The notes: generated by a model not told the origin, from the sequence alone. 64,000 bases of DNA from an uncultured Elusimicrobia bacterium (GCA_903867985.1 CAIPTO010000029.1:65-64064), one strand, 5' to 3'; shown: positions 6,286 through 59,820, numbered from the stretch's first letter. Numbers and translations: made by a program.

Positions 6286-6739
6286 CAATATCAACTTTAC
6301 CCGCGAAAATTTCCCTTCCGCCGTCTTTTATCCTGATTATCAGTTCCCACTCTCCGGTCATAACCACATTCACCGGCAGCAGGTAATCGCCTCTCCTGTT
6401 AAGTTGAAACTTGACCGGCCCCGAATCGTGGGCGCGCATGGACGGCATGCCGAACTCGCCGGTTATTTCATAAGATGATTTCTGTTTCTTGTCGCCGGAA
6501 TAAGTCTGCAGCTTAACGATGGTCGTGCCTAACTGCGGCGTTTTATTGAATTTCCAGGTGAACCAGCAGCCGCCGGGAAGCGCGTTCTTTTTCCCTTCCG
6601 GTGCGAGCGCGACCGGTTTAAGGGCTGCCGCGGCTTTGGCGGGCTTGATTTGCGCTTTAACCGCCGGTTTATCTCCGCCCCATGTGACAGCCGGCATAGC
6701 CAGCGCTACAGCCAGAATAAACACGTTTATTTTTTTCAT
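6278..6739 (-). CDS. Secreted YtkA/FixH-like domain protein
   Basis: It has a signal peptide. The C-terminal Ig-like segment carries a Met/His patch (GMPSMRAH) that resembles YtkA-like domains. This is a low-specificity call. Confidence 0.4.
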   Translation of the reverse strand: MKKINVFILAVALAMPAVTWGGDKPAVKAQIKPAKAAAALKPVALAPEGKKNALPGGCWFTWKFNKTPQLGTTIVKLQTYSGDKKQKSSYEITGEFGMPSMRAHDSGPVKFQLNRRGDYLLPVNVVMTGEWELIIRIKDGGREIFAGKVDIDV

Positions 6740-12526: not shown

Positions 12527-12655
12527 CAAGTCGCGGGGTCCTGCCAGCCATGGGACCCATCGGGCCTGCGACCGGCCCGGCGACTTCGCGCCGGTTCCTT
12601 CTCGACCCGATCCAACCCATGGCTGTCACCCCTTATTACCCCGCACAAATTTACA
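12527..12655 (+). repeat. Structured repeat, copy A (core 12545-12625)
   Basis: Copy A is near-identical to 13583-13760 apart from a 46-nt indel. The outer stem is CAGCCATGGG/CCCATGGCTG and the inner stems are ATCGGGCC/GACCCGAT and CCGGCG/CGCCGG. Confidence 0.8.
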
Positions 12656-12702: not shown

Positions 12703-13512
12703 TTAGGGTTTATAGTACTTCATCGCTTCTGGCATCCAGCCTTCAATATCCTTTATTCTGGTCTCGTGGCCGGGGTGGGTGGAAAGATATTTGGCAAGAG
12801 GAGAATCGGGGGATTTGGTGGCGGCTTCCATACGTTTCCAGAAATCCAGAGCGGCGTGCGGATCATAACCGGCTTTGGCCATAAGTATCAGGCCTATGTG
12901 ATCCGCCTCTGACTCGTGCGAGCGGCTGAAAGGGAGCATAACTCCCACGTTCATTCCCACACCGTAGGCTTTAGAGAAGGCGCCCTGCACTTCAGGCGTT
13001 TTGTTGGAAAGCGCCACGCTCAATATTTTGCTCCCGATCCCGGCGGCCATTCCCTGGCTCATTCTTTCGGAGCCATGCCGGGCCAGCGCGTGGGCTATTT
13101 CATGGCCCATAACTACGGCCAAACCGGCTTCGTCTTTGGCCACGGGGAGCAGCGCGGTGTAAACAGCCACTTTCCCTCCGGGAAGGCAGAAAGCGTTTAT
13201 TTGCTTTTCATCCTCTATCAGATTAAATTCCCATTTGAACTGGGGAGGCGCGTCCGATACTTTGGCCAGACGGGCACCCACCCTTCTGACCAGCGCGGTC
13301 TTTTCGGCGTCGGCGGACAGTTTTGAACTTTTAAGCACCGCCGCGTAAGATTCGTCGCCCATCTTTACCTCTTCCGATTCGGAGACCAGGAGCATATGCT
13401 TGCGCCCGGTGTATGGTACGCTGGAACAGCCCCACAGCATAAGCGCAGCCGCAAAGTAGAATATAATTTCGATTCTTGTTATCATAAGTTCATCCGGTTT
13501 TTTATTATACAT
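12703..13512 (-). CDS. M48 family metallopeptidase lipoprotein (LoiP/YcaL-like)
   Basis: The zinc motif HEIAHALARH is present, with a lipobox-like LWGC. An alternative start lies at 13485. Confidence 0.85.
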   Translation of the reverse strand: MYNKKPDELMITRIEIIFYFAAALMLWGCSSVPYTGRKHMLLVSESEEVKMGDESYAAVLKSSKLSADAEKTALVRRVGARLAKVSDAPPQFKWEFNLIEDEKQINAFCLPGGKVAVYTALLPVAKDEAGLAVVMGHEIAHALARHGSERMSQGMAAGIGSKILSVALSNKTPEVQGAFSKAYGVGMNVGVMLPFSRSHESEADHIGLILMAKAGYDPHAALDFWKRMEAATKSPDSPLAKYLSTHPGHETRIKDIEGWMPEAMKYYKP

Positions 13513-13582: not shown

Positions 13583-13760
13583 AGGGTTCGCGGGTCCGGC
13601 CAGGCATGGGACCCATCGGGCCTGCGGCCGGCCCGGCGACTGACCTATGGGCGTGCCGCAACAGGGCCTATGGCCAACAGGCGGCCTTCGCGCCGGTTCC
13701 TTCTCGGCCCGATCTAACCCATGGCTGTCACCCGCTCCACTTACACCGCCAAGAATGTAT
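13583..13760 (+). repeat. Structured repeat, copy B (core 13601-13727, with a 46-nt insertion at 13641-13686)
   Basis: Copy B is a direct repeat of copy A. The insertion sits exactly in the apical loop of the CCGGCG/CGCCGG stem. Confidence 0.8.
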
Positions 13761-13967: not shown

Positions 13968-15785
13968 ATGATAACCATCAAGAATATATATAAGTCATTT
14001 TCTTCACAATCCCTGTTCGAGGGGGCGTCTCTACAGATAAACGAAGGGGAGCGTTTCGCGCTGGTCGGGCCCAACGGTTCCGGGAAGTCCACGCTTTTTA
14101 AGATGATGCTTCGCGAAGAAGAGGCGGACGACGGGGAAATACAGTTCAAGAAGAACGTCGTAGTGGGTTATTTGCCGCAGGAGAACGCCCCAACTACGGA
14201 ACGCACGGTAGTGGATGAAACTCTGGACGGCGCGGAGGACTTTGACGGTCGCAAGGGCGCCGAAGCCAAGGCTGTTCTGATGGGACTCGGTTTCAAAGTT
14301 TCCGATTTCGGCAGGCATGTTAACACGCTTTCCGGCGGATGGGCTATGCGCGTGGCAATGGCCAGGCTTCTGGTGAAAAAACCGGATCTGCTGCTCCTGG
14401 ACGAGCCTACAAATCATCTGGACCTTGACGCTCTATTGTGGCTGCAGGATTATCTGGCGGCTTACCAGGGAGCGGTTTTCGTCATTTCCCATGACCGTTC
14501 ATTTATCAATACCGTCTGCAACGCCATTATCTCCGTTCAGGATAAAACACTTCGCGCCTATTACGGGGATTACGAGCATTTTCTCAATCAGCGCCAGTCG
14601 GAGAAAGACAAGATACTCTCACAATGGAAGCAGCAGCAGGACGATATCGCCCAGATGAAGGACTTCATCTTCCGCAACAGGGCGCGCGTTTCAACCGCGT
14701 CCCGTGTGCAGAGCATGATCAAGCGGCTTGACAAGCTTGAGCTGGTGCAGGTACCGGAAGACACCAAAACGGTCAAGATACGCTTTCCGCAGCCCGGCCG
14801 GACCGGAACAAAAGTTCTGGAGCTGAAGGACATAAGCAAAATTTACAATGTCCCCGGCCACGAACCCATACGGGTATATGAAAATTTCAGTTTTGAGCTT
14901 TACCGCGGACAGAAAATGGCTTTTGTCGGTCATAACGGCGCCGGTAAATCAACGCTGCTGAAGATGCTGGCTGGCGTGATAGAGCCGGATTCCGGAGAGC
15001 GCATCCCCGGCCTGAACGTAAAGACCGGCTATTTTTCTCAGCATCGGGAAGGCATACTCGAGCCGCGGCACACCGTTCTGCAGGAAGCCATGGATAACGA
15101 CAGGATGAACCCCGAGCTTACAGTGAGGACCGTGCTCGGAACCTTCCTGTTCCCGGGCGATAATGTTTACAAAAAAACGGCTGTGCTCAGCGGCGGAGAA
15201 AAAAGCCGGCTGATGCTGGTGAAACTGCTGCTGGACCCGCCGAACGTTATATTGATGGACGAGCCCACCACGCACCTCGATATGCCCAGCGTGGACGCGC
15301 TTATCGGAGCGCTGAAAGAATTTGAGGGCACGCTTTGCTTTATCAGCCACGATTTATATTTCATAAACGCCCTGGCCGACTCCGTGGTGCACGTTGAAAA
15401 AGGAAAGACCACCGTTTATCCAGGCAACTACGATTATTTTCGTCACCGTCAGATGACTATGCAGGCGGAATTGGCGGCGGCCGCCCCTTCAGGCGAGAGG
15501 GCTAAGCCTTCGGAAGCACGCGCTGACACGGCGGCCTGGGAAGAGAAGAAGCGTCAGGAGGCGGAGGCCCGCAAGCGTTCACGCCGGGGCGATACGCTTA
15601 AAAAAGATATAGCCTATTCCCGGAAAACCATTGAGACGCTGGCCGCAAAGATGTCCTCGCCTGAAATTTATTCGGATTATCAGCAGGTTAAAGAACTGGG
15701 GGATAAGATACACGCCCTTGAAGCCAAGGTCGCCGCGGCCCTGGAAGAGCTGAAGACGCTGGCTGAAAGTTGCCATCAGCCATAA
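13968..15785 (+). CDS. ABC-F family ATPase (Uup/EttA-like)
   Basis: It has two ABC cassettes (GPNGSGKST, GHNGAGKST; LSGGW..., LSGGEKSRL), no TM domain and a charged C-terminal coiled coil. I chose the ATG at 13968 over the TTG at 13935. Confidence 0.9.
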   Translation: MITIKNIYKSFSSQSLFEGASLQINEGERFALVGPNGSGKSTLFKMMLREEEADDGEIQFKKNVVVGYLPQENAPTTERTVVDETLDGAEDFDGRKGAEAKAVLMGLGFKVSDFGRHVNTLSGGWAMRVAMARLLVKKPDLLLLDEPTNHLDLDALLWLQDYLAAYQGAVFVISHDRSFINTVCNAIISVQDKTLRAYYGDYEHFLNQRQSEKDKILSQWKQQQDDIAQMKDFIFRNRARVSTASRVQSMIKRLDKLELVQVPEDTKTVKIRFPQPGRTGTKVLELKDISKIYNVPGHEPIRVYENFSFELYRGQKMAFVGHNGAGKSTLLKMLAGVIEPDSGERIPGLNVKTGYFSQHREGILEPRHTVLQEAMDNDRMNPELTVRTVLGTFLFPGDNVYKKTAVLSGGEKSRLMLVKLLLDPPNVILMDEPTTHLDMPSVDALIGALKEFEGTLCFISHDLYFINALADSVVHVEKGKTTVYPGNYDYFRHRQMTMQAELAAAAPSGERAKPSEARADTAAWEEKKRQEAEARKRSRRGDTLKKDIAYSRKTIETLAAKMSSPEIYSDYQQVKELGDKIHALEAKVAAALEELKTLAESCHQP

Positions 15786-15872
15786 GCCTTAAGCCATATG
15801 CCATAGGGTATAAGGAAAATCCTTAAAAGCTTATGGCATAAAGCATACGGCTTATGGCAATAGCATATATGC
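15781..15872. repeat. Intergenic fold-back element, GGCATA/TATGCC word class
   Basis: The arms are built from 7-8 nt units (CATAAGCC TTAAGCC ATATGCC ... TTATGGC ATAAAGC ATACGGC TTATGGC). CATAAGCC pairs with GGCTTATG. Confidence 0.7.
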
Positions 15873-24797: not shown

Positions 24798-24930
24798 CAG
24801 TCTGGAGGCACAGCCAACCAGCAACTTGGATGTAAAGCAATCCAGCAGTTTAGATACCAGGTAACTGGCAATTTAATTAACGCCAGGCCACTAAATTGCT
24901 TTACATCCAAACTGCTTTGCCTCTGAACCG
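24798..24930. repeat. Intergenic fold-back element, GGATGTAAAGCA word class
   Basis: TTGGATGTAAAGCAAT (24826-24841) pairs with ATTGCTTTACATCCAA (24895-24910). The element shares the boundary words GCAGTCTGGA and CTGCTTTGCCTCT with 32815-32945. Confidence 0.75.
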
Positions 24931-24961: not shown

Positions 24962-25894
24962 ATGAAATATGCTGAAAATATAACAAATCTTATCGGCAAC
25001 ACGCCTCTGGTCAGGATAAATCGCGTGGCGGGTGCCGGCCCTGGCATGGTTCTGGCTAAACTTGAATACTTTAACCCGATGTCCAGCGTTAAAGACCGCA
25101 TAGCCATGGCGATGCTTGATGCGGCGAGCCGTAGCGGGTTAATAAAGGAAAAAAGCCTTATAATTGAGCCCACAAGCGGCAATACCGGCATAGGCCTGGC
25201 TTTTATCTGCGCGGTGCGCGGCTACAGGCTTATGCTGACCATGCCGGAGACTATGAGCGTTGAAAGGCGCAAAATACTGAAGGCCCTTGGCGCGGAAATC
25301 GTTCTTACTCCCGGAGCCGGGGGGATGAAGGGGGCGATAGCAAAAGCTGATGAGCTTCTGGCCGCCAATCCCGGCGCTTTTATGCCCCAGCAGTTTGAAA
25401 ATCCGGCCAATCCGGAGATACACAGGAAGACCACCGCGGAAGAGATTTGGAAGGACACTGACGGTGCGATAGATTATTTTGTGGCCGGGGTAGGTACCGG
25501 CGGGACTATTACCGGAGTTTCGGAAGTCCTGAAAAAGCGCCGGCCCGGAGTCAGAGTAGTCGCGGTGGAACCATTTACTTCTTCTGTCCTCTCAGGGGAA
25601 CCGGCAGGGCCGCATAAAATACAGGGCATAGGCGCAGGGTTCGTGCCGGCCGTGTTCAACAGAGAGAATATAGACGAAATTATCAGGGTTCGTGACGATG
25701 AGGCCGGGCGTATGGCTAGGCGTCTGATGGCCGAGGAAGGGATATGCGCCGGGATCTCAGGCGGGGCCGCCATGCATGCCGCGGTTCTGGTGGCCGCCAG
25801 GCCGGAAGCCGCAGGTAAGGTTATTGTAGTCCTGCTGCCGGACAGCGGCGAGCGCTATCTGAGCACCTGGCTGTATGATACACCAGAGGACTAG
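24962..25894 (+). CDS. cysK: Cysteine synthase A (O-acetylserine sulfhydrylase)
   Basis: The PLP Lys context NPMSSVKDR is present, with [10 protein letters not shown] and GTGGTITG motifs. I moved the start to the ATG at 24962, outside the repeat. Confidence 0.9.
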
Positions 25895-25962
25895 AGGACT
25901 GGAGGACTGGGGACCGCCCTACATGCTAATCCTCTAATCTTCTAATCTTCCAATCCTCTAAT
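25885..25962. repeat. Intergenic element, AGAGGACT / CYTCYAAT octamer class
   Basis: The left arm is (AGAGGACT)x3 and the right arm is CCTCTAAT CTTCTAAT CTTCCAAT CCTCTAAT. The cysK stop TAG (25892-25894) lies inside the left arm. Confidence 0.75.
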
Positions 25963-32839: not shown

Positions 32840-32945
32840 CTGCGAGAAGCAAAGCCTATAGATGTAAAGCGGTCTAGCTAAATTGCCGGCCTGCTTTGCC
32901 TCTCGGTTGCTAGATCGCTTTGCATCTAAGTTGCTGAACTGCTGC
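32815..32945. repeat. Intergenic fold-back element, GGATGTAAAGCA word class
   Basis: TAGATGTAAAGCGGTCTAGC pairs with GCTAGATCGCTTTGCATCTA, and GAGAAGCAAAGC pairs with GCTTTGCCTCTC. It is the same family as 24798-24930. Confidence 0.75.
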
Positions 32946-38346: not shown

Positions 38347-38437
38347 AGAGGGCTGGAGGATTGGAAGACTAGAGGACTGGTTAACAAGGACGAACCTTAT
38401 GTCGTCAGTCCTAAACATGTTGGTCTTACTTTCCTCT
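38347..38437. repeat. Intergenic element, GGAGGAYTGG word class
   Basis: The left arm is CTGGAGGA TTGGAAGA CTAGAGGA CTGG. The right arm CAGTCCT...GGTCTT...TTCCTCT is partly complementary. The words match those at 25885-25962. Confidence 0.6.
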
Positions 38438-38473
38438 TTTAAAATCTGGTCACACTGCCTGCATCAGCTGTTT

Positions 38474-46276: not shown

Positions 46277-46449
46277 ATTGTTAATCTCCCGGCAAAAGGA
46301 GTGCTGCTCCTTTTGCTGTTATCATCAGCGCGGCAGAACGGCAGCAAGACAGTACGGCAGTTCTGTCCGCAAATTGCCAGGGAATTACAGATTCTCCTAT
46401 GGGCTTCCGTGTCTTGTGACTTGGCGACTCTGCCGCGTTCGTGACGCAT

Positions 46450-47284: not shown

Positions 47285-47325
47285 GAAGGGTATAGGGGTC
47301 AGGGGACAGGGTATAGAAACAGGGA
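47285..47325 (+). repeat. G-rich heptad array (orphan arm) with a G-quadruplex motif
   Basis: The units are GAAGGGT ATAGGGG TCAGGGG ACAGGGT ATAGAAA CAGGGA. The G4 motif is GGG-TATA-GGGG-TCA-GGGG-ACA-GGG. Confidence 0.7.
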
Positions 47326-53807: not shown

Positions 53808-55241
53808 ATGAATGAGACATCGGATTTCAATTTCAGCGAAATAAAAAAAGCGTATTTTATAGGTATAGGCGGCATAGGCATGAGCGGAATTGCCCGTCTG
53901 CTGCTTAAAACCGGCGTGAAGGTAAGCGGGTCGGACCTGAAAGAATCGGAGATTACCAGGATACTGAAGGCTGAAGGCGCGCGGGTATTTATCGGGCACA
54001 GGATTTCCAATATCCTTGCCCCGCACTTTGGTTCGGGGCGTACGAGACAAAATGCAGGGGGCGATCCCGATGTGGTTGTGATAAGTTCCGCAATCAAAGC
54101 CGGAAATCCAGAACTTGCGGCTGCAGTGAAAAAAGGGATGAGGATCGTACCCCGGGCCCAGATGCTGGCCAAACTTGCCTCGTCCAAAAAAACCGTTACC
54201 GTCAGCGGTTCACACGGCAAGACCAGCACAACATCCATGCTCGCCTCGGCACTTGAAGGCGCGGGGGTGGACGCCACGGTCGTAGTCGGGGGATTGTTCA
54301 AAAATATAGGCTCGAATATTAAAATAGGCGCGGGTGAATATCTGGTGGCTGAGGCGGATGAGTCCGACGGATCTTTCCTTTATTTTAATCCGCTGGTTAC
54401 CTGTGTTACCAATATAGATTCCGATCACCTGGATTTTTACAAGGACATGACTAACCTTAAAACGGCATTTTTGGCGCATATTGCCAAGGTTCCTTTCTAT
54501 GGCGCGGCCGTTGTCTGCGCCGATGATCCAGGCGTGGCGTCCATTCTGGGCGCGGTTGAAACCACGCTTATAACTTACGGCTGCAGATCGGGCTCTGACT
54601 GGGTCGCTAAAAATCTGAAGTCCGGCCCGGCGGGGTTGGTTTATGACGCTTATTTCAGGGGTAAGAGGATGGGCCGGGTAGCGCTCAGGTCAGGCGGACG
54701 CCATAACGCCCTCAATTCTTTGGCCGCGCTGGCCGCCGGGCGCTACCTCGGTTTTGATTTTGCCGGACTTGTTAAGGGGCTTGCGAACTTTAAGGGCGTA
54801 AAGCGCCGTATGGAAAATATCGGTGAATATGCCGGGGTGACATTTTTGGATGATTACGGACATCATCCCACCGAAATAAAAGCAACTCTCGGGACCGTCC
54901 CGGAGATGTACAAGGGCCGGGGCAGGCTCATAGTCTTGTTCCAGCCTCACCGCTATTCCAGGACCGGAATTCTCCGGCGCGAATTCCCCGCCGCCTTCGA
55001 TCAGGCAGACCTTACTTATGTTATGGATATCTATGCCGCCGGAGAAAAGCCGCTGCCCGGAGTAACCTCGGAACTTATACTGGCCGGCCTGAAGGAACGC
55101 GGCCTTAAAGCGGAAAAATTCCCCGGCGCGATGGAGATAGCTAAGAACCTGCGGGCGGGAGATGTCCTGATTACTGTCGGGGCCGGCGATGTTTGGAAGT
55201 TCGGCGAAGAGATAAAACTGAAGTTGCAAACAATATGTTAG
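53808..55241 (+). CDS. murC: UDP-N-acetylmuramate--L-alanine ligase
   Basis: FIGIGGIGMSGIARLL, the GSHGKTSTTSM P-loop and the Mur ligase C-terminal domain are present. Confidence 0.95.
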   Translation: MNETSDFNFSEIKKAYFIGIGGIGMSGIARLLLKTGVKVSGSDLKESEITRILKAEGARVFIGHRISNILAPHFGSGRTRQNAGGDPDVVVISSAIKAGNPELAAAVKKGMRIVPRAQMLAKLASSKKTVTVSGSHGKTSTTSMLASALEGAGVDATVVVGGLFKNIGSNIKIGAGEYLVAEADESDGSFLYFNPLVTCVTNIDSDHLDFYKDMTNLKTAFLAHIAKVPFYGAAVVCADDPGVASILGAVETTLITYGCRSGSDWVAKNLKSGPAGLVYDAYFRGKRMGRVALRSGGRHNALNSLAALAAGRYLGFDFAGLVKGLANFKGVKRRMENIGEYAGVTFLDDYGHHPTEIKATLGTVPEMYKGRGRLIVLFQPHRYSRTGILRREFPAAFDQADLTYVMDIYAAGEKPLPGVTSELILAGLKERGLKAEKFPGAMEIAKNLRAGDVLITVGAGDVWKFGEEIKLKLQTIC

Positions 55242-55324
55242 GGTAGAGGGGATAGGGTTGAGGGTAAAGTTATAAGGAGCTCCTTACCCTGAACCCTAAA
55301 CCCTAAACCCTGAACCCTTACCCT
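55240..55324 (+). repeat. Intergenic heptad fold-back element, GGGT/ACCC class, with a G4 motif
   Basis: The left arm is GGGTAGA GGGGATA GGGTTGA GGGTAAA, the apex palindrome is TAAGGAGCTCCTTA, and the right arm is CCCTGAA CCCTAAA CCCTAAA CCCTGAA CCCTTA CCCT. It fills the entire murC-rsmA spacer. Confidence 0.8.
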
Positions 55325-56098
55325 ATGCCTAAATACAGTCAGGTTTTTTTGAAGGACGCCGGGTTGTGCGAAGATATCGCCACAGCTCTCGGACCGGAGG
55401 AGTTCGGTTTGGGCGTGGAGATCGGCCCGGGGCGTGGCGCCCTTACGGAATTTCTCTATCCGTTGTGGGGAAATAAGTTTTCAGCGGTGGAAATAGATCC
55501 ACTGATGACGGCCCGCATAAAGGAGAAATTCCCTGGCGTACGGATAATAAATTCTGATTTTCTGACCCTTGACCTGGAGACGGTTTTACCCGCAGGAACG
55601 GCGGCGTTCATCGGTAATCTGCCGTACGAATGCTCCACTGCCATACTTATGAAAGTGCTGGCTTTCAGCCGTGTGGGCGCCGCGGTGTTCATGTTCCAGA
55701 GAGAGGTGGCAAGGAAAATAACCGCGCTCACGGGAGATTCAGATTACGGTTACCTGTCAGTAGCCGTCCAGTCCCAGAGCGAGGCTGCGCTGCTGGTGGA
55801 TGTGCCGGCCGCCAGTTTCACCCCGGTCCCGAAGGTGGATTCTTCGGTGCTTGTCTTCAAGCCGCGGCCGACTTTCCTCACGGTCGAACGACGGCAATAT
55901 TTTCTCAATTTCGTGAAAAACGCTTTCTCGCACCGGCGCAAGACGTTGGCCAATTCTCTGTCACTTGGCCTGGGTGCGGATAAGGAAGAAGTTTATAACC
56001 GCATCAAGGCCGCCGGTTTCAACCCCGGCCTGCGGCCGCAGAACCTCTCGCTGGAGGATTACCTCAGCCTTTCAGCCGCTTTCGCGGGCGGAAAGTAA
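55325..56098 (+). CDS. rsmA: 16S rRNA (adenine1518/1519-N6)-dimethyltransferase
   Basis: SQVFLKD, the EIGPGRGALT SAM motif and GNLPY are present. Confidence 0.9.
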   Translation: MPKYSQVFLKDAGLCEDIATALGPEEFGLGVEIGPGRGALTEFLYPLWGNKFSAVEIDPLMTARIKEKFPGVRIINSDFLTLDLETVLPAGTAAFIGNLPYECSTAILMKVLAFSRVGAAVFMFQREVARKITALTGDSDYGYLSVAVQSQSEAALLVDVPAASFTPVPKVDSSVLVFKPRPTFLTVERRQYFLNFVKNAFSHRRKTLANSLSLGLGADKEEVYNRIKAAGFNPGLRPQNLSLEDYLSLSAAFAGGK

Positions 56099-56218
56099 TT
56101 CGTTATGATGCGCAGTGCGCGGATATCGAACTGCATATAATTGTAAAGTGGTATAATTGAGGAGATCTCAAAACTGAGATTATAAGGTAAGGTTAGGGAT
56201 CCCGCTAAATGGACAGCT

Positions 56219-57256
56219 ATGAACATACATGAGAAACGTTTACACGATCTGCAGTGCCTCCTGAAAAAAGAAAAACTTGACGCAATAGTCCTTTCCAGGC
56301 CGCTGGAACAGGTTTTTTTTACCGGATTTCGCATGGACGGAATGGTTATGCTTGTTTCCAGGAGTTCAGCCTGGGCTTTCATGCCTAAGATGCTCCTTGA
56401 CCAATTCAAGTCGAAGGTGTCTTTCTTCAGCGCAGCTGCCCCGGAAAGTCTGCTGGAGGCGGTGATCCTGAAAATGAGGGACGGAAAATTTAAGAAAACT
56501 ATTTTTGAGCCGGAAACCGAAACTTATTTGCGGGGCCGGTTTTGGCGGAAGAAAGGTCTTTCTGAATTTAGAGGCCTTACGGCAGGTCTGCGATTGGTTA
56601 AAGAGGGGGAGGAGATTTCCATATTGCGCCAATCCTGCCGGATTGCAGCCAAGGCTTTCGGAATAATAAAACCGAGGATAAAAACCGGCCGCACGGAGGT
56701 TTCCGTTTCCAGGGAACTTGAGGACATCATGCAGGCCATGGGCGCCAGGGGGCCCAGCTTCAGCCTGATAGTGGGATTCGGGCCGGATTCCGCGTTGCCC
56801 CATCACGACACATCCGCCAGGCCGCTCGGGGCAAACGAGGCGGTGCTGCTGGATTTCGGCTGCGTGTATAACGGCTACTGTTCCGATATCACCAGGACTT
56901 ATTTCCACGGCAAGCCGGACAAAGAATTTAAAAAAATATATTCAATCGTTGAGGCCGCCCAAAAGGCCGGCGTCAAGAAAGTCAGGGCCGGAGTTAAAGC
57001 TGCCGAAGTTGATAAGGCCTGCCGCGATTATATCTCGGATGCCGGGTTCGGCCAGTATTTTATCCACGGCACCGGACACGGCGTGGGCCTCGAGATCCAT
57101 GAGGCTCCGACTCTGAACACTAAATCCAGGGATACGCTCCGGGCGGGCATGGCTGTCACGGTGGAACCCGGCATTTATCTGCCCGGGAAGTTCGGAGTGC
57201 GCATAGAGGATTCAGTGCTGGTTAAAAAAGGCGGATGCGAAATTTTAACAAAGTAG
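56219..57256 (+). CDS. M24 family Xaa-Pro aminopeptidase/dipeptidase
   Basis: HGTGHGVGLEIHEAP and VEPGIY are present, together with the metal ligands of the pita-bread fold. Confidence 0.85.
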   Translation: MNIHEKRLHDLQCLLKKEKLDAIVLSRPLEQVFFTGFRMDGMVMLVSRSSAWAFMPKMLLDQFKSKVSFFSAAAPESLLEAVILKMRDGKFKKTIFEPETETYLRGRFWRKKGLSEFRGLTAGLRLVKEGEEISILRQSCRIAAKAFGIIKPRIKTGRTEVSVSRELEDIMQAMGARGPSFSLIVGFGPDSALPHHDTSARPLGANEAVLLDFGCVYNGYCSDITRTYFHGKPDKEFKKIYSIVEAAQKAGVKKVRAGVKAAEVDKACRDYISDAGFGQYFIHGTGHGVGLEIHEAPTLNTKSRDTLRAGMAVTVEPGIYLPGKFGVRIEDSVLVKKGGCEILTK

Positions 57257-57331
57257 GCATCAGGCTGCGGATCACAAGTTTCGGGCAATAGAAAGTTGCT
57301 GCCTGAAACCCTGCACCCGTAACCTGAAGCC
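57256..57331 (+). repeat. Intergenic heptad fold-back element
   Basis: The left arm is GGCATCAGGCTGCGG. The reverse complement of the right arm is GGCTTCAGGTTACGG. The right arm units are GCCTGAA ACCCTGC ACCCGTA ACCTGAA. Confidence 0.6.
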
Positions 57332-57352
57332 GACATCTTAGCAGGAGGAAAC

Positions 57353-57916
57353 ATGATTATATTAACGATAGTGCTTCTTGCGGTTGTTATGTGGGTGGTT
57401 TTAATATTCAACGGCCTGATTAAACTTCGTAACCAGGTGGCTAACGCTTTTAAGCAGATAGACGTGCAATTGAAGCGGCGTTATGACCTTATCCCCAATC
57501 TGGTAAATTCCGTAAAAGGCGAGATGAAATTCGAGCAGTCCACTCTGGAGAAAGTCATACAGGCCCGCGCAGCGGCGATGAACGCGGGAGCCGCCGGGAA
57601 TATGAACGAAATTCTGGCTAAGGAAGGTATGCTTACCCAGGCCCTGGGCAAGCTTATAGCCCTCACGGAGAACTATCCCAACCTTAAGGCCAATGAATCA
57701 GTCAAGCCCCTTATGGAAGAACTGACGCACACTGAGAACCAGATCGGTTTCGCCAGGCAGTTCTATAACGATATCGTTACCAAGTTCAATACTGAACAGC
57801 AGGTTTTCCCGAACAATATGTTCGCGGCTATGATGGGCTTTTCGTCCGCGGTTCTGTTTGAGCTTCCTCAGGATTCTGCGGACAGGGAAGTTCCGAAAGT
57901 GGACCTTGCGGTATAA
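57353..57916 (+). CDS. lemA: LemA family protein
   Basis: An N-terminal TM helix is followed by the LemA core (RYDLIPNLV...ENYPNLKA...ENQI..AR..YN). Confidence 0.9.
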   Translation: MIILTIVLLAVVMWVVLIFNGLIKLRNQVANAFKQIDVQLKRRYDLIPNLVNSVKGEMKFEQSTLEKVIQARAAAMNAGAAGNMNEILAKEGMLTQALGKLIALTENYPNLKANESVKPLMEELTHTENQIGFARQFYNDIVTKFNTEQQVFPNNMFAAMMGFSSAVLFELPQDSADREVPKVDLAV

Positions 57917-57921
57917 CAAAA

Positions 57922-58000
57922 AGGGCATAGGGTATGGGGTTTAGGGTATAGTTATAAAAACTTCACCCTAGACCTGCTGCCCTGACCTCTGAACCCTAAC
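57922..58000 (+). repeat. Intergenic heptad fold-back element, GGGT/ACCC class, with a G4 motif
   Basis: The left arm is AGGGCAT AGGGTAT GGGGTTT AGGGTAT, and the right arm is CACCCTA GACCTGC TGCCCTG ACCTCTG AACCCTA. It ends 2 nt before the next ATG. Confidence 0.75.
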
Positions 58001-58002
58001 TG

Positions 58003-59064
58003 ATGAACATCTACGAGCAGCAGGCCAGGAACAGGCGCATGACTTGGGGAATCATGTTCGTTTTTGTCGTTTTTTTTCTTGTAATCGGAATGGGTTTTGA
58101 TTTTTTCTACCTGAGGTTTAGTCCGCTAAAGGCGCCCGCTTACAAGTGGAATTCTTTAGGTTACTACGAAGCCTCCGTAGCCTCCCAGCCGGTGCCTTAC
58201 GGCACCATTTTTGCCCTGCTGATAGGCTTAGGGATGGTGGCCAACAGTATGGTGAACGGAGCCAAAATGGTGCTGCGTTCCACACAGGCTCGTCTTGCCG
58301 TGCCCACGGATGAAAAAGAACGCCAGTTCATTAATGTGGTCGCGGAAATGTCAACAGCTTCAGGGTTACAGCGGCCGCAGGCGTATATAGTTCCGGACGC
58401 CGACCTTAACGCTTTCGCAGCCGGGATAAATCCGGGAAACGCGGTGATCGCCGTTACCGAGGGACTTTTGAGTTCGCTCAACAGGGAGGAGCTGCAGGCA
58501 GTAGTGGCCCATGAGATGAGCCATATTAAAAATTACGACATGCGCCTTATGACGGTGTCGGCTGCTCTGATGGGCGCTATAGCTCTCTTAAGCGATCTGG
58601 CTGGCCGGACCATGCGCCCCCGCTATGGTTCTTCTCTGTCTGGTTCCTCCTCCGTGCCAGGATCTTCTTCCGGGGGGCGTAAAAGCGGAGGCGGGGTGCT
58701 CATGCTGGTCGTTTTCGTGCTCTGGCTGCTGCTGGTGGTTCTGGCGCCGCTTATCTCGCGCATGCTGGCCATGGCTATTTCCCGCGAACGGGAATATCTG
58801 GCCGATGCTTCCGGCGCCGAACTTACGCGCAATCCCCTGGCTCTGGTGTCCGCGCTCGAGAAGATCCGCGCTGCCGTAACGCCGACCTACTCAATTAATA
58901 ACGGCGTTGCGCATATGTGCATCACGGATCCGCGCGGCAGCCTGATAGAGGAAAAAATGGGCCTTGCGGCCGACCTGTTCGCCACGCATCCTCCCATGCA
59001 AAAAAGGATACTCGCTTTAAAAGTTATGGCTTATCAGAATGCCAGGGTGGAGGGTAGAGGGTAG
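58003..59064 (+). CDS. M48 family peptidase, HtpX-like, with a Ser/Gly-rich insert
   Basis: HEMSHIKNYD is the zinc motif. The protein has TM helices and is paired with lemA. Its last 7 codons lie inside the repeat. Confidence 0.85.
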   Translation: MNIYEQQARNRRMTWGIMFVFVVFFLVIGMGFDFFYLRFSPLKAPAYKWNSLGYYEASVASQPVPYGTIFALLIGLGMVANSMVNGAKMVLRSTQARLAVPTDEKERQFINVVAEMSTASGLQRPQAYIVPDADLNAFAAGINPGNAVIAVTEGLLSSLNREELQAVVAHEMSHIKNYDMRLMTVSAALMGAIALLSDLAGRTMRPRYGSSLSGSSSVPGSSSGGRKSGGGVLMLVVFVLWLLLVVLAPLISRMLAMAISREREYLADASGAELTRNPLALVSALEKIRAAVTPTYSINNGVAHMCITDPRGSLIEEKMGLAADLFATHPPMQKRILALKVMAYQNARVEGRG

Positions 59065-59125
59065 AGGTTTGAGGGTTGAGAAGTATTATCCAACCCTATA
59101 CCCTACACCCTAACCCCTATACCCT
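59044..59125 (+). repeat. Intergenic heptad fold-back element, GGGT/ACCC class
   Basis: The left arm is CCAGGGT GGAGGGT AGAGGGT AGAGGTT TGAGGGT, and the right arm is CAACCCT ATACCCT ACACCCT AACCCCT ATACCCT. Confidence 0.8.
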
Positions 59126-59142
59126 GATTTGAGGAGAACGAC

Positions 59143-59718
59143 ATGATAACATCTACGCAGTTCAAAGAAGGCACGATATTTACCAATGAGAACGGGCAGA
59201 TAGTGGAAGTGCTGACCTATCAGCACCATCGCAAGTCGCAGGCCCGGGCCGTGGTAAGAGTTAAACTCCAGAACCTTGAAACCGGCGCTATTATCGAAAC
59301 CACCTACCGCCCCGAAGATAAATTTAAGGATGTGATGGTGGAAAAACGGCCCAAGACCTACCTTTATAGCGACGGCACGCTCGCACATTTTATGGATAAC
59401 GTAAGTTTCGAACAGGCCGGTCTGCCCATGTCCAAGATAGGGCCCTTGATGCAGTTCCTTACGGAAAACATGGAGGTGGAGGGCCTTTACCTCAACGATA
59501 AATTCTTCAACATCGCGCTGCCTGCCAATATCGTTATGACCATAACCGAGACCGTTGACAGTGTGAAGGGCGACACGGTTTCCAACGTGATGAAGGACGC
59601 CAAGGTCAACACAGGACTGGCGATAAAGGTCCCGATGTTCATTAAAGAGGGGGACAAGGTCCGCGTGGATACCCGCACTTTTGAGTATCTTGAAAGAGTG
59701 ACAGAGCCTAAAAGATAG
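59143..59718 (+). CDS. efp: Elongation factor P
   Basis: The N-terminal KOW-like domain and the VKLQNLETG block are present, in a 191-aa protein with a strong SD (GAGGAG). Confidence 0.9.
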   Translation: MITSTQFKEGTIFTNENGQIVEVLTYQHHRKSQARAVVRVKLQNLETGAIIETTYRPEDKFKDVMVEKRPKTYLYSDGTLAHFMDNVSFEQAGLPMSKIGPLMQFLTENMEVEGLYLNDKFFNIALPANIVMTITETVDSVKGDTVSNVMKDAKVNTGLAIKVPMFIKEGDKVRVDTRTFEYLERVTEPKR

Positions 59719-59820
59719 TGACGAGTGTGTAGCGGGAGGGCAGGAATGTTTTCTTCTCTGCGTACGGCTTACTGCGTGCGCGGCGCACTTGTAGCTTATG
59801 GCAACAGACTTTGAGAAATT

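Follow-up and report, generated by a model that had tools for sequence, protein, structure and literature searches.

Background

An excess of heptanucleotides in bacterial intergenic DNA was reportedly noted in a survey of 2007, and small dispersed repeats of Nostoc are said to have been described by Elhai et al. in 2008. The cyanobacterial tandem heptanucleotides termed STRR are described as direct arrays, and pairing with an inverted array is no part of their definition; REP/BIME elements are single palindromes of 20–40 nt with a conserved family sequence and a RAYT transposase, often located after stop codons in operons. The present study concerns foldback elements of tandem heptanucleotide units that occupy spacers between co-directional genes in a 64,000-nt stretch of DNA from an uncultured Elusimicrobia bacterium (the whole analysed stretch, hereafter the window), above all within the gene string murC-rsmA-pepP-lemA-htpX-efp.

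The closest described systems are the heptamer arrays of Rehm et al. (2015; PMC4692102), with GGGAATC units in Xanthomonas, GGGGA(C/T)T units in Nostoc and a preference for four units. These arrays lie between co-directional open reading frames (ORFs), at most 50 bp from a stop codon or overlapping it, with the C-rich strand just 5' of start codons, and their lengths vary between related genomes. Per Xanthomonas genome 70–75 convergent array pairs capable of forming stem-loops were reported, and about 180 arrays per genome. The flanking genes share no function and no role of the arrays was found. The study centred on G-quadruplexes (G4), which heptamers of this type formed in vitro. STRR, as cited in that paper, are dispersed in intergenic DNA, and a 2022 preprint on recF/recO of Nostoc left the role of heptamer repeats open. 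The original prediction of the elements studied here, made from the sequence of the window, had known of no described family of this design, a view that the inverted heptamer arrays of Rehm et al. contradict.

A second type of heptamer repeat, TAACTGA, forms direct arrays in Beggiatoaceae, cyanobacteria and Bacteroidetes, and a role in translation has been proposed for it (MacGregor 2015; PMC4679880). These arrays stop between one and a few nt short of a start codon; in 132 of 170 sets there is no ribosome-binding site (RBS), some run into the 3' end of the preceding ORF, and a single case is inverted. Hairpin-dependent translational coupling is known from genes VII/IX of phage f1 and, at +52 nt, from rpmI-rplT of E. 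coli (reviewed in PMC12548453), and REP-type extragenic palindromes are treated in the REPIN paper (PMC3116915).

Four foldbacks between the genes of the murC-efp string

The genes murC (53808-55241), rsmA/ksgA (55325-56098), pepP (encoding an M24 peptidase, 56219-57256), lemA (57353-57916), an htpX-like gene for an M48 peptidase (Peptidase_M48, 58003-59064) and efp (59143-59718) all lie on the + strand, as does the HAD hydrolase gene that comes next; gene calls and Pfam labels were taken from an identical contig. Four of the five spacers from murC to efp each fold as one long imperfect hairpin (RNAfold). Significance was expressed as the z-score of the minimum free energy (MFE) against 200 dinucleotide shuffles per element, and for each of the four elements none of the 200 shuffles folded as well. 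The predicted structures consist of helices of 4–7 bp with small internal loops between them, mostly 2x2, as expected from two roughly complementary arrays of 7-nt units. The predicted duplexes comprise 22–33 bp, interrupted by internal loops, and begin directly after stop codons. The sequence of the region 55000-59400 agrees with its earlier description.

Foldback 1, between murC and rsmA (55240-55324, + strand; MFE -43.7 kcal/mol, z -5.6), has a G-arm of four heptads at 55240-55269 (GGGTAGA GGGGATA GGGTTGA GGGTAAA), the apex palindrome TAAGGAGCTCCTTA at 55273-55286, and a C-arm of six units at 55286-55324 (CCCTGAA, CCCTAAA and similar). The murC stop codon TAG (55239-55241) is part of the first unit, and the rsmA start codon (55325-55327, +), which has no Shine-Dalgarno (SD) sequence, adjoins the C-arm directly. 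Foldback 2, between pepP and lemA (57253-57334, +; MFE -36.1, z -4.9), is an imperfect hairpin of about 28 bp with the pepP stop TAG (57254-57256) at its base and with weak heptad periodicity (autocorrelation 0.32/0.48); the SD sequence of lemA, AGGAGG at 57343-57348, lies 8 nt past its end. In a relative (contig L085) this element is 95% identical and carries one compensatory change, from G-C to A-U.

Foldback 3 (57922-57999, +; MFE -35.5, z -4.6) follows the lemA stop codon TAA at 57914-57916 and is composed of a G-arm at 57922-57951 (AGGGCAT AGGGTAT GGGGTTT AGGGTAT) and a C-arm at 57965-57999, the start codon of the htpX-like gene (58003-58005, +), again without an SD sequence, being located 3 nt past the C-arm. 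Foldback 4, between htpX and efp (59044-59125, +; MFE -42.8, z -4.4), has its G-arm at 59044-59079 (AGGGTGG AGGGTAG AGGGTAG AGGTTTG AGGGTTG) and its C-arm at 59092-59125 (ACCCTAT ACCCTAC ACCCTAA CCCCTAT ACCCT). Here the stop codon TAG of htpX (59062-59064) lies inside the G-arm as part of a heptad, and the last six codons of the gene (RVEGRG) are encoded by the array. The array thus dictates the C-terminus of the HtpX-like protein, which can be expected to change with the number of units. The SD sequence of efp, GAGGAG at 59131-59136, is found 3' of the element.

Period-7 arrays were detected in elements 1, 3 and 4, both with Tandem Repeats Finder and in an autocorrelation scan. Of the four heptad-array hairpins originally predicted, all four thus fold (z -4.4 to -5.6) and three are clear 7-nt arrays, the element at 57253-57334 being only weakly heptadic. 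The predicted location of the murC, pepP and htpX stop codons, at or inside the 5' arm, was correct in all three cases, as was that of the next ATG close behind the right arm, with the rsmA ATG at 55325 adjoining it and the htpX ATG at 58003 following at +3 nt.

The claim that foldbacks fill every junction of the string, including a fragment near 56190, does not extend to the spacer between rsmA and pepP. This spacer is unstructured, both in the window, where the supposed fragment does not fold (z +0.07), and across relatives (median z -0.46), and it contains no foldback but an extended -10-like sequence, TGGTATAAT (56149-56157, +), recognised by sequence and conservation: TAGTATAAT/TGGTATAAT is kept at the same position of the spacer in more than ten relatives. 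A simple -35/-10 scan of the window missed TGGTATAAT, since the scan demands a -35 element. By its sequence and conservation, TGGTATAAT is probably the promoter of pepP-lemA-htpX-efp, and murC-rsmA and pepP-efp may form separate transcription units.

The elements are unchanged in contigs from two other samples (L001 and L002), which are identical to the window, and a contig from a third sample (L003) differs from the window only within pepP. Because they are identical in independent assemblies from other samples, the foldbacks are not assembly artefacts. No population-level variation in units was seen among these three contigs. The difference in pepP of the third contig amounts to 42 substitutions, all inside about 320 nt at the 5' end of the gene (56239-56557), and represents either a recombination tract or a chimeric assembly.

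Turnover of units at orthologous junctions

The best genome matches to LemA are Elusimicrobia MAGs. Conservation of the gene string murC-rsmA-pepP-lemA-htpX-efp-HAD extends to about 100 related Elusimicrobia loci; it was counted at 23 loci from genomes and at some 45 more from metagenomes. Hairpins recur at orthologous junctions of these relatives with unrelated units, so that the architecture is kept and the sequence replaced, as had been anticipated. The accompanying statement, that the primary sequence differs from locus to locus, holds in part only, as three of the four elements in the window share GGGTnnn/CCCTnnn units.

The lemA/htpX junction illustrates this. Its units are GGGTnnn in the window and in L004, L007, L019, L084 and L085, AGGTAnA in L086, ATCGTAA in L017 and L092, CACAAGT in L097, GATCGAG in L103 and L138, and GAATCGA in L105, and in L096 a 14-nt unit, GCGTATAGGGGCGA, stands against nine copies of CCTCTAG. 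At this junction, high-GC relatives carry plain GC hairpins, and in certain relatives the spacer measures -1 to 35 nt. In each case the arms match each other, which is covariation at the level of the whole array. Elements are gained, lost and exchanged rapidly at orthologous junctions, and are missing from many relatives.

Differences in length between close relatives come in whole units. The C-arm of foldback 1 is exactly one 7-nt unit shorter in L085 than in the window, the htpX/efp spacer shows a 24-nt (3 x 8) difference between L084 and L085, and the array that directly follows the efp stop codon has two TGAnnAG heptads in the window, four in L084 and six in L085. Such whole-unit differences are a signature of slippage.

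The left arm mostly begins at the stop codon itself (e.g. tagAGGGTAGAGGGTAG), and its units contain TAG, TGA or TAA; in total, left arms contain 87 stop triplets versus 28 of their complements. Because seven is not a multiple of three, such an array yields stops in all frames, which would explain why arrays overlap the ends of ORFs, as at htpX.

Arm order, strand asymmetry and the apex palindrome

Counts of period, polarity and fold strand were made on the 33 periodic foldbacks found at these junctions. The period is 7 in 27 cases, 6 in four and 8 in two. The purine-rich arm comes first, beside the stop codon, in 32 of the 33, and a regular-expression count over 1.38 Mb of loci gave 11 cases of G-arm followed by C-arm and none of the reverse, leaving out two viral loci that had been chosen by that order. 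This arm order reads identically on either strand, and therefore places the purine arm at the upstream stop and the pyrimidine arm at the downstream start of any co-directional junction. At aligned arm positions of the periodic subset, G-U pairs exceed A-C oppositions (77:52, p 0.03), and the sense-strand fold is the more stable one in 25 of the 33 (median difference 2.7 kcal/mol, p 0.005). A bias of purine-purine over pyrimidine-pyrimidine mismatches is weak (67:47, p 0.07).

A palindrome, TAAGGA-N2-4-TCCTTA, is found at the tips of foldbacks with differing arm units in several genomes. It matches 38 times (both strands) versus 2–18 times in shuffled sequences; of its 19 distinct sites, about 12 coincide with the tip of a foldback. 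These sites include 55273-55286 and 15812-15824 in the window, positions 6598, 7719 and 11406 of L004, 3564 of L019, 1015 of L096, 1399 and 6071 of L097, 320 of L119 and 717 of L127. The central dinucleotide is present in both orientations. From its sequence, the palindrome looks like an SD sequence paired with an anti-SD mimic.

Unit-array foldbacks also follow lemA immediately in members of the Acidobacteriota, the candidate division FCPU426 and Veillonella (6558-6658 in L031, 6557-6617 and 8041-8155 in L038, and 1791-1894 in L047), with the units GTTTCGA, AGCCCAA and TTTTCAA and the 8-nt unit TTAGGTAC. The design is therefore cross-phylum. A scan of the 2.9 million contigs of IMG/VR for G-type foldbacks gave two matches, 6890-6953 in L164 and 4476-4549 in L165, which have AGGGTTC/GAACCCT units in the same architecture; as there are just two, the elements are not phage-associated.

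Translation context of the downstream genes

With synonymous variation in both genes, the encoded N-termini are conserved from the first residue: MPKYSQVFL of RsmA in about 50 relatives, and MNIYEQQ of HtpX in about 80 relatives belonging to several phyla. The start codons of both genes are thereby fixed. An SD sequence precedes rsmA in none of 24 short and none of 12 long spacers, and htpX in none of 29 short and two of 50 long spacers. The corresponding numbers are 34/36 and 11/12 for lemA, and 28/29 and 22/22 for efp. In many relatives the genes at the murC/rsmA and lemA/htpX junctions overlap or are separated by few nt (0–35 nt). Overlapping genes or spacers of a few nt are the usual sign of translational coupling.

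Structure was compared by junction for spacers of at least 40 nt, using the fold z-score and the fraction with z < -2 and treating related genomes as independent. Both SD-less junctions are strongly structured, with a median z of -3.0 and 69% below -2 at lemA/htpX (n=55) and a median of -4.9 and 70% at murC/rsmA (n=10). For the SD-bearing junctions the values are -0.34 and 27% (htpX/efp), -1.5 and 41% (pepP/lemA), and -1.5 and 39% (efp/HAD), and for the promoter-bearing rsmA/pepP junction -0.46 and 9%. An SD-less lemA-to-htpX junction with spacers that are either tiny or structured is also seen in Acidobacteriota, Bacteroidota and other phyla.

The hairpins of relatives start at a median of -5.5 to -8 nt, counted from the end of the stop codon. 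Since they begin at or before the stop, a terminating ribosome would have to open the base. At SD-bearing junctions the hairpin ends 6–8 nt before the SD sequence. Coupling hairpins are expected to precede genes without an SD sequence, which is the case for rsmA and htpX and not for lemA, efp and typA. They should also begin inside the preceding ORF or at its 3' end, as the hairpins do here, whose stem bases adjoin or contain the stop codons. In elements 1 and 3 the ATG is 0–3 nt from the 3' arm, and across relatives this distance is the same as in shuffled spacers.

Further foldbacks and repeats in the window

Beyond the murC-efp string, the window contains at least five further foldbacks with other units, making about ten elements within 64 kb. 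A sliding MFE scan of the whole window was uninformative, because coding sequence of high GC content gave folds as stable as those of the elements, and a gapless hairpin finder was used with shuffled sequences instead: 17 hairpins score at least 14, against 2.1 expected. Tandem arrays of at least four units with a period of 6–9 number 12 (five of period 7, two of period 8), versus a mean of 1.13 in 30 shuffles (0.03 of period 7, 0.03 of period 8). The excess over shuffled sequence that had been proposed as a check is thus present within the window, and so is the restriction to co-directional junctions: among gaps of at least 40 nt, periodic foldbacks occur in five of 31 co-directional ones (nine of 31 when weaker ones are included) and in none of 11 convergent or divergent ones.

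One of the further elements (15772-15867, +; MFE -43.7, z -6.6), with five GCCATAA units and their complement around the apex AAGGAAAATCCTT, sits between a gene for an ABC-F ATPase and typA/bipA; the upstream stop TAA (15783-15785) lies inside the first units, and the SD sequence of typA, AAGGAG, is 3' of the hairpin. Between a cysK-like (PALP) gene and anmK, 3.8 copies of the 8-nt unit GAGGACTG face 4.6 copies of CTAATCCT (25886-25962, +; z -2.4), the pairing of the arms requires G-U pairs, and the first unit includes the stop TAG (25892-25894). A member of the GAGGACTG family with one degenerate arm lies in the HIT/dnaG spacer (38348-38440, - strand; z -2.3). A weak foldback with 8-nt units of the CGGCAGTA family (46331-46440, -) between a phytoene/squalene-synthase gene and dcd is marginal (z -1.9), and a decayed foldback of TGAnnAG heptads in the efp/HAD spacer (59719-59805, +) is not significant (z -1.0). 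Finally, a half element of four C-rich heptads (ACCCTGT CCCCTGA CCCCTAT ACCC; 47288-47311, -; z +0.14) has no G-arm partner and stands a few nt before the ATG (47280-47278) of the phytoene/squalene-synthase gene, which is SD-less, suggesting that a pyrimidine array beside a start codon could matter alone. The neighbours of all these foldbacks are unrelated housekeeping genes, for an ABC-F ATPase, typA, cysK-like, anmK, HIT, dnaG, dcd and phytoene/squalene synthase.

Two other kinds of repeat were observed. A second hairpin family, at 24820-24916 and 32859-32928 (z -4.0 and -4.3), has near-perfect stems of 16–20 bp with a common GGATGTAAAGCAAT. A related element of 156–180 nt with 8-nt units fills the htpX/efp spacer of L084 (1285-1470) and L085 (6048-6209), where the window has its GGGT-type foldback. 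The other, a MITE-like dispersed repeat, is palindromic, rich in GC and about 100 nt long. Its copies at 12536-12631 and 13592-13733, the second with an insert of about 46 nt, flank a - strand gene (12703-13512); a related copy is present in the rsmA/pepP spacer of L009 (4739-4823) and L087.

A proposed role in translational coupling

We propose, with a probability of roughly 0.45, that the foldbacks are built by slippage, fold the spacer away and in so doing keep or gate translational coupling. Each consists of a tandem array of 7-nt (sometimes 6- or 8-nt) units followed by a roughly complementary array, and would lengthen and shorten in steps of one unit by slippage during replication. Transcribed as an internal part of the operon messenger RNA (mRNA), the spacer would fold as one long imperfect hairpin, with the purine arm beginning at or including the upstream stop and the pyrimidine arm ending at the downstream ribosome-binding region. 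At the SD-less junctions, from murC to rsmA and from lemA to htpX, such a hairpin would join stop and start at its base and bury the initiation region; a ribosome terminating upstream would then open the base and allow the downstream start by unfolding of the RNA or by re-initiation. A spacer of 80–90 nt could in this way act like the 0–30 nt spacers of relatives. At the SD-bearing junctions, before lemA and efp, where the hairpin stops short of the SD sequence, it is probably neutral or a 3' protective stem. Transcription through the elements, folding of the RNA in vivo and the coupling role are what we infer from the sequences and their comparison.

Several observations weigh against this proposal. 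Half of the elements, those at the lemA, efp and typA junctions, precede good SD sequences, and coupling cannot be their reason there. The contrast in structure between junctions comes from statistics that ignore kinship among genomes that are not phylogenetically independent. The excess of G-U over A-C is modest, and over all 53 junction hairpins, non-periodic ones included, there is none (116:95). The gap between the 3' end of the hairpin and the start codon, with a median of 2 nt, does not improve on the 3 nt of shuffled spacers; it reflects an end effect of the folding window and gives no statistical evidence of juxtaposition. The proposed check for covariation in orthologous spacers gave no compensatory pairs in the consensus structure of a three-sequence lemA/htpX alignment, a comparison of low power in which heptad arms pair in several registers, and a single compensatory change at pepP/lemA. 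In a random-library study in E. coli, as cited in the review PMC12548453, structure just after the upstream stop lowers coupling. Lastly, the preference for 7 nt, the kept internal loops and the recurring apex palindrome are all unaccounted for by the coupling model.

The proposal can be widened to heptamer foldbacks in general, as a widespread, self-renewing device for SD-independent downstream translation. The spacer would be removed from the path of the ribosome and the start gated; the purine arm would be opened by the terminating ribosome, with handover to a start on a pyrimidine-rich, S1-friendly arm in an analogue of ribosome shunting, and the arrays would be rebuilt by slippage and arm-to-arm templating. 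We regard this wider version as distinctly unlikely. If it were true, it would provide a function for the long-noted excess of heptanucleotides in bacterial intergenic DNA, to which both Rehm et al. (PMC4692102) and MacGregor (PMC4679880) drew attention in 2015.

Alternative explanations

The elements could be neutral or selfish by-products, in which slippage generates the arrays, template switching (quasi-palindrome correction) matches the arms, and the whole spreads harmlessly up to the stop codon, SD sequence or start codon. We consider this somewhat unlikely, although it covers much of the same data. It agrees with the way in which elements fill the space exactly between functional boundaries, whichever of these applies, with their rapid gain, loss and replacement and absence from many relatives, with whole-unit length variants, decayed relics and half elements, and with flanking genes that are unrelated housekeeping genes, as in Rehm et al. 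The strict arm order (32/33; 11:0) and the sense-strand G-U bias are left unaccounted for, and the regular 2-nt mismatches, which template switching ought to remove, are still there. That SD-less long spacers are structured about twice as often requires added selection on folding, which is the core of the coupling proposal. What chiefly separates the two explanations is whether selection favours the hairpin or only tolerates it.

Stem-loops of the REP type stabilise upstream mRNA, and sites of the R1.1 type in phage T7 are processed. Intercistronic RNA processing or stability, raised in the original prediction, would make the elements RNase III substrates (T7-like) or barriers to 3' exonucleases (REP-like) that give cistrons differing half-lives. 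The predicted duplexes of 22–33 bp with internal loops directly after stops, the presence of elements at SD-bearing junctions too, and the modest evidence of pairing in the sense RNA all point in this direction. We find it very doubtful, as a cut at lemA/htpX or murC/rsmA would leave the downstream cistron with neither an SD sequence nor an upstream ribosome, and the heptad design and arm order are not accounted for.

Regulation by G4 or i-motif structures, formed by G3N4 x4 arms in DNA or RNA and modulating transcription or translation, is highly improbable. The motif G3+N1-7 with four tracts is present at 55241-55264, 57923-57946, 59045-59077 and 47288-47311, that is, in the arms of elements 1, 3 and 4 and in the half element, with four or five tracts, and similar heptamers, with their preference for four units, form G4 in vitro (Rehm et al., PMC4692102). 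It is absent, however, from foldbacks of the same architecture made of G-tract-free units (GCCATAA, ATCGTAA, CACAAGT, GATCGAG, GAGGACTG and similar). Because these G-poor foldbacks occupy the same positions, the hairpin and not the quadruplex is the shared feature; moreover, the complementary arm lies on the same strand 10–16 nt away, and hairpin formation should compete strongly.

Some bacterial lineages are reported to have terminators with a weak U-tract or none. With strong hairpins directly past stop codons, the foldbacks could on this ground be taken for U-tract-free terminators or attenuators, a reading that is scarcely credible: no U-tract follows any of the four, a consensus scan of the window found eight terminator-like matches (the number expected from shuffles) and none in these spacers, and the elements lie inside a conserved operon ahead of rsmA and htpX, which need the upstream cistron on the same mRNA because they are without an SD sequence. 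Classical U-tract terminators do exist in this genome, chiefly at the ends of convergent genes (1632, 22535, 28656, 34440), and the elements had rightly been set apart from them; the U-tract-independent termination suggested along with this is disfavoured, and we conclude that the elements are not terminators. As a class, the intrinsic terminator was rejected for its missing U-tract and for the position of the elements internal to a gene order kept in relatives.

Equally hard to credit is a mobile or, as also suggested originally, protein-binding element, with the apex palindrome TAAGGA-N2-4-TCCTTA or the units bound by a regulator, a nucleoid protein or a transposase-like enzyme that spreads or maintains them: the palindrome does recur at tips with different arm units in several genomes (38 matches vs 2–18) and the same unit families appear at unrelated loci in different genomes, but many foldbacks have no apex motif, no transposase-like gene is found among the annotated genes of 47-64 kb, and there are no target-site duplications and length changes unit-wise.

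Membership of other known classes was rejected on similar grounds. REP/BIME is excluded by arms of tandem units, lengths of 75–95 nt and several unit families instead of one palindrome of 20–40 nt, and no RAYT gene was found among the annotated genes of 47-64 kb or ten proteins scanned. A MITE would have target-site duplications at its ends, which are absent, and relatives differ by unit-sized indels inside the arms; in CRISPR, repeats of 23–50 nt alternate with unique spacers, as opposed to contiguous units of 7–8 nt. A search of the window against Rfam at gathering scores returned two tRNAs only, and at E<=1 the region 55150-59250 gave one chance-level match.

Significance of the locus

The feature is real, its origin by slippage looks ordinary and it has a published precedent; its interest is moderate and lies in a locus that makes function testable. 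The conserved operon is a clean comparative system, with junctions that have tiny spacers, plain hairpins or foldbacks and with two SD-less downstream genes, so that the claim that foldbacks keep or gate coupling can be tested on it. It also allows the hairpin rather than the G-quadruplex to be argued as the conserved feature. For gene callers and operon predictors, a spacer of 80–100 nt in these genomes is no sure sign that transcription or translation is interrupted.

Comparison with described systems

The coupling hairpins of f1 VII/IX and rpmI-rplT resemble the elements in that a hairpin extends from the end of the upstream ORF to a start with a weak RBS or none, and has to be opened by a ribosome. 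Those hairpins are unique sequences for which coupling was shown by experiment; the elements described here are repeat arrays for which we propose it. With REP/BIME the foldbacks share their extragenic, presumably transcribed and hairpin-forming nature, their frequent position just past stops and their organisation in dispersed families, from which they differ as foldbacks of 75–95 nt built of tandem units, in several families, with length changes in unit steps. Like the TAACTGA repeats (PMC4679880), they are intergenic tandem 7-nt units that contain stop triplets and lie close to SD-less starts. The TAACTGA repeats, however, are direct and have almost no self-complementarity, whereas the elements here are two-armed foldbacks.

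The arrays of Rehm et al. (PMC4692102) are the closest. As in those, elements 1, 3 and 4 have tandem 7-nt units with G-tracts, two arrays converge with the purine arm beside the stop (32/33; 11:0), and the location is confined to co-directional gaps (5–9 of 31 versus 0 of 11 other gaps in the window). The units GGGTAGA, GGGTTGA, GGGTATA and so on make the Elusimicrobia elements the same kind of element in another sequence family and another phylum, with about ten of them in the 64 kb of the window. Unlike the Rehm arrays, those described here comprise several unit families, including G-poor and 8-nt ones, within one architecture and with a recurring apex palindrome, and the link to SD-less downstream genes drawn here is a point outside that paper. 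The Elusimicrobia elements are thus the counterpart of the inverted heptamer arrays of Xanthomonas and Nostoc, to which the present analysis adds the replacement of one unit family by another at given junctions, an arm order that is strict, the palindrome at the apex and the link to SD-less genes.

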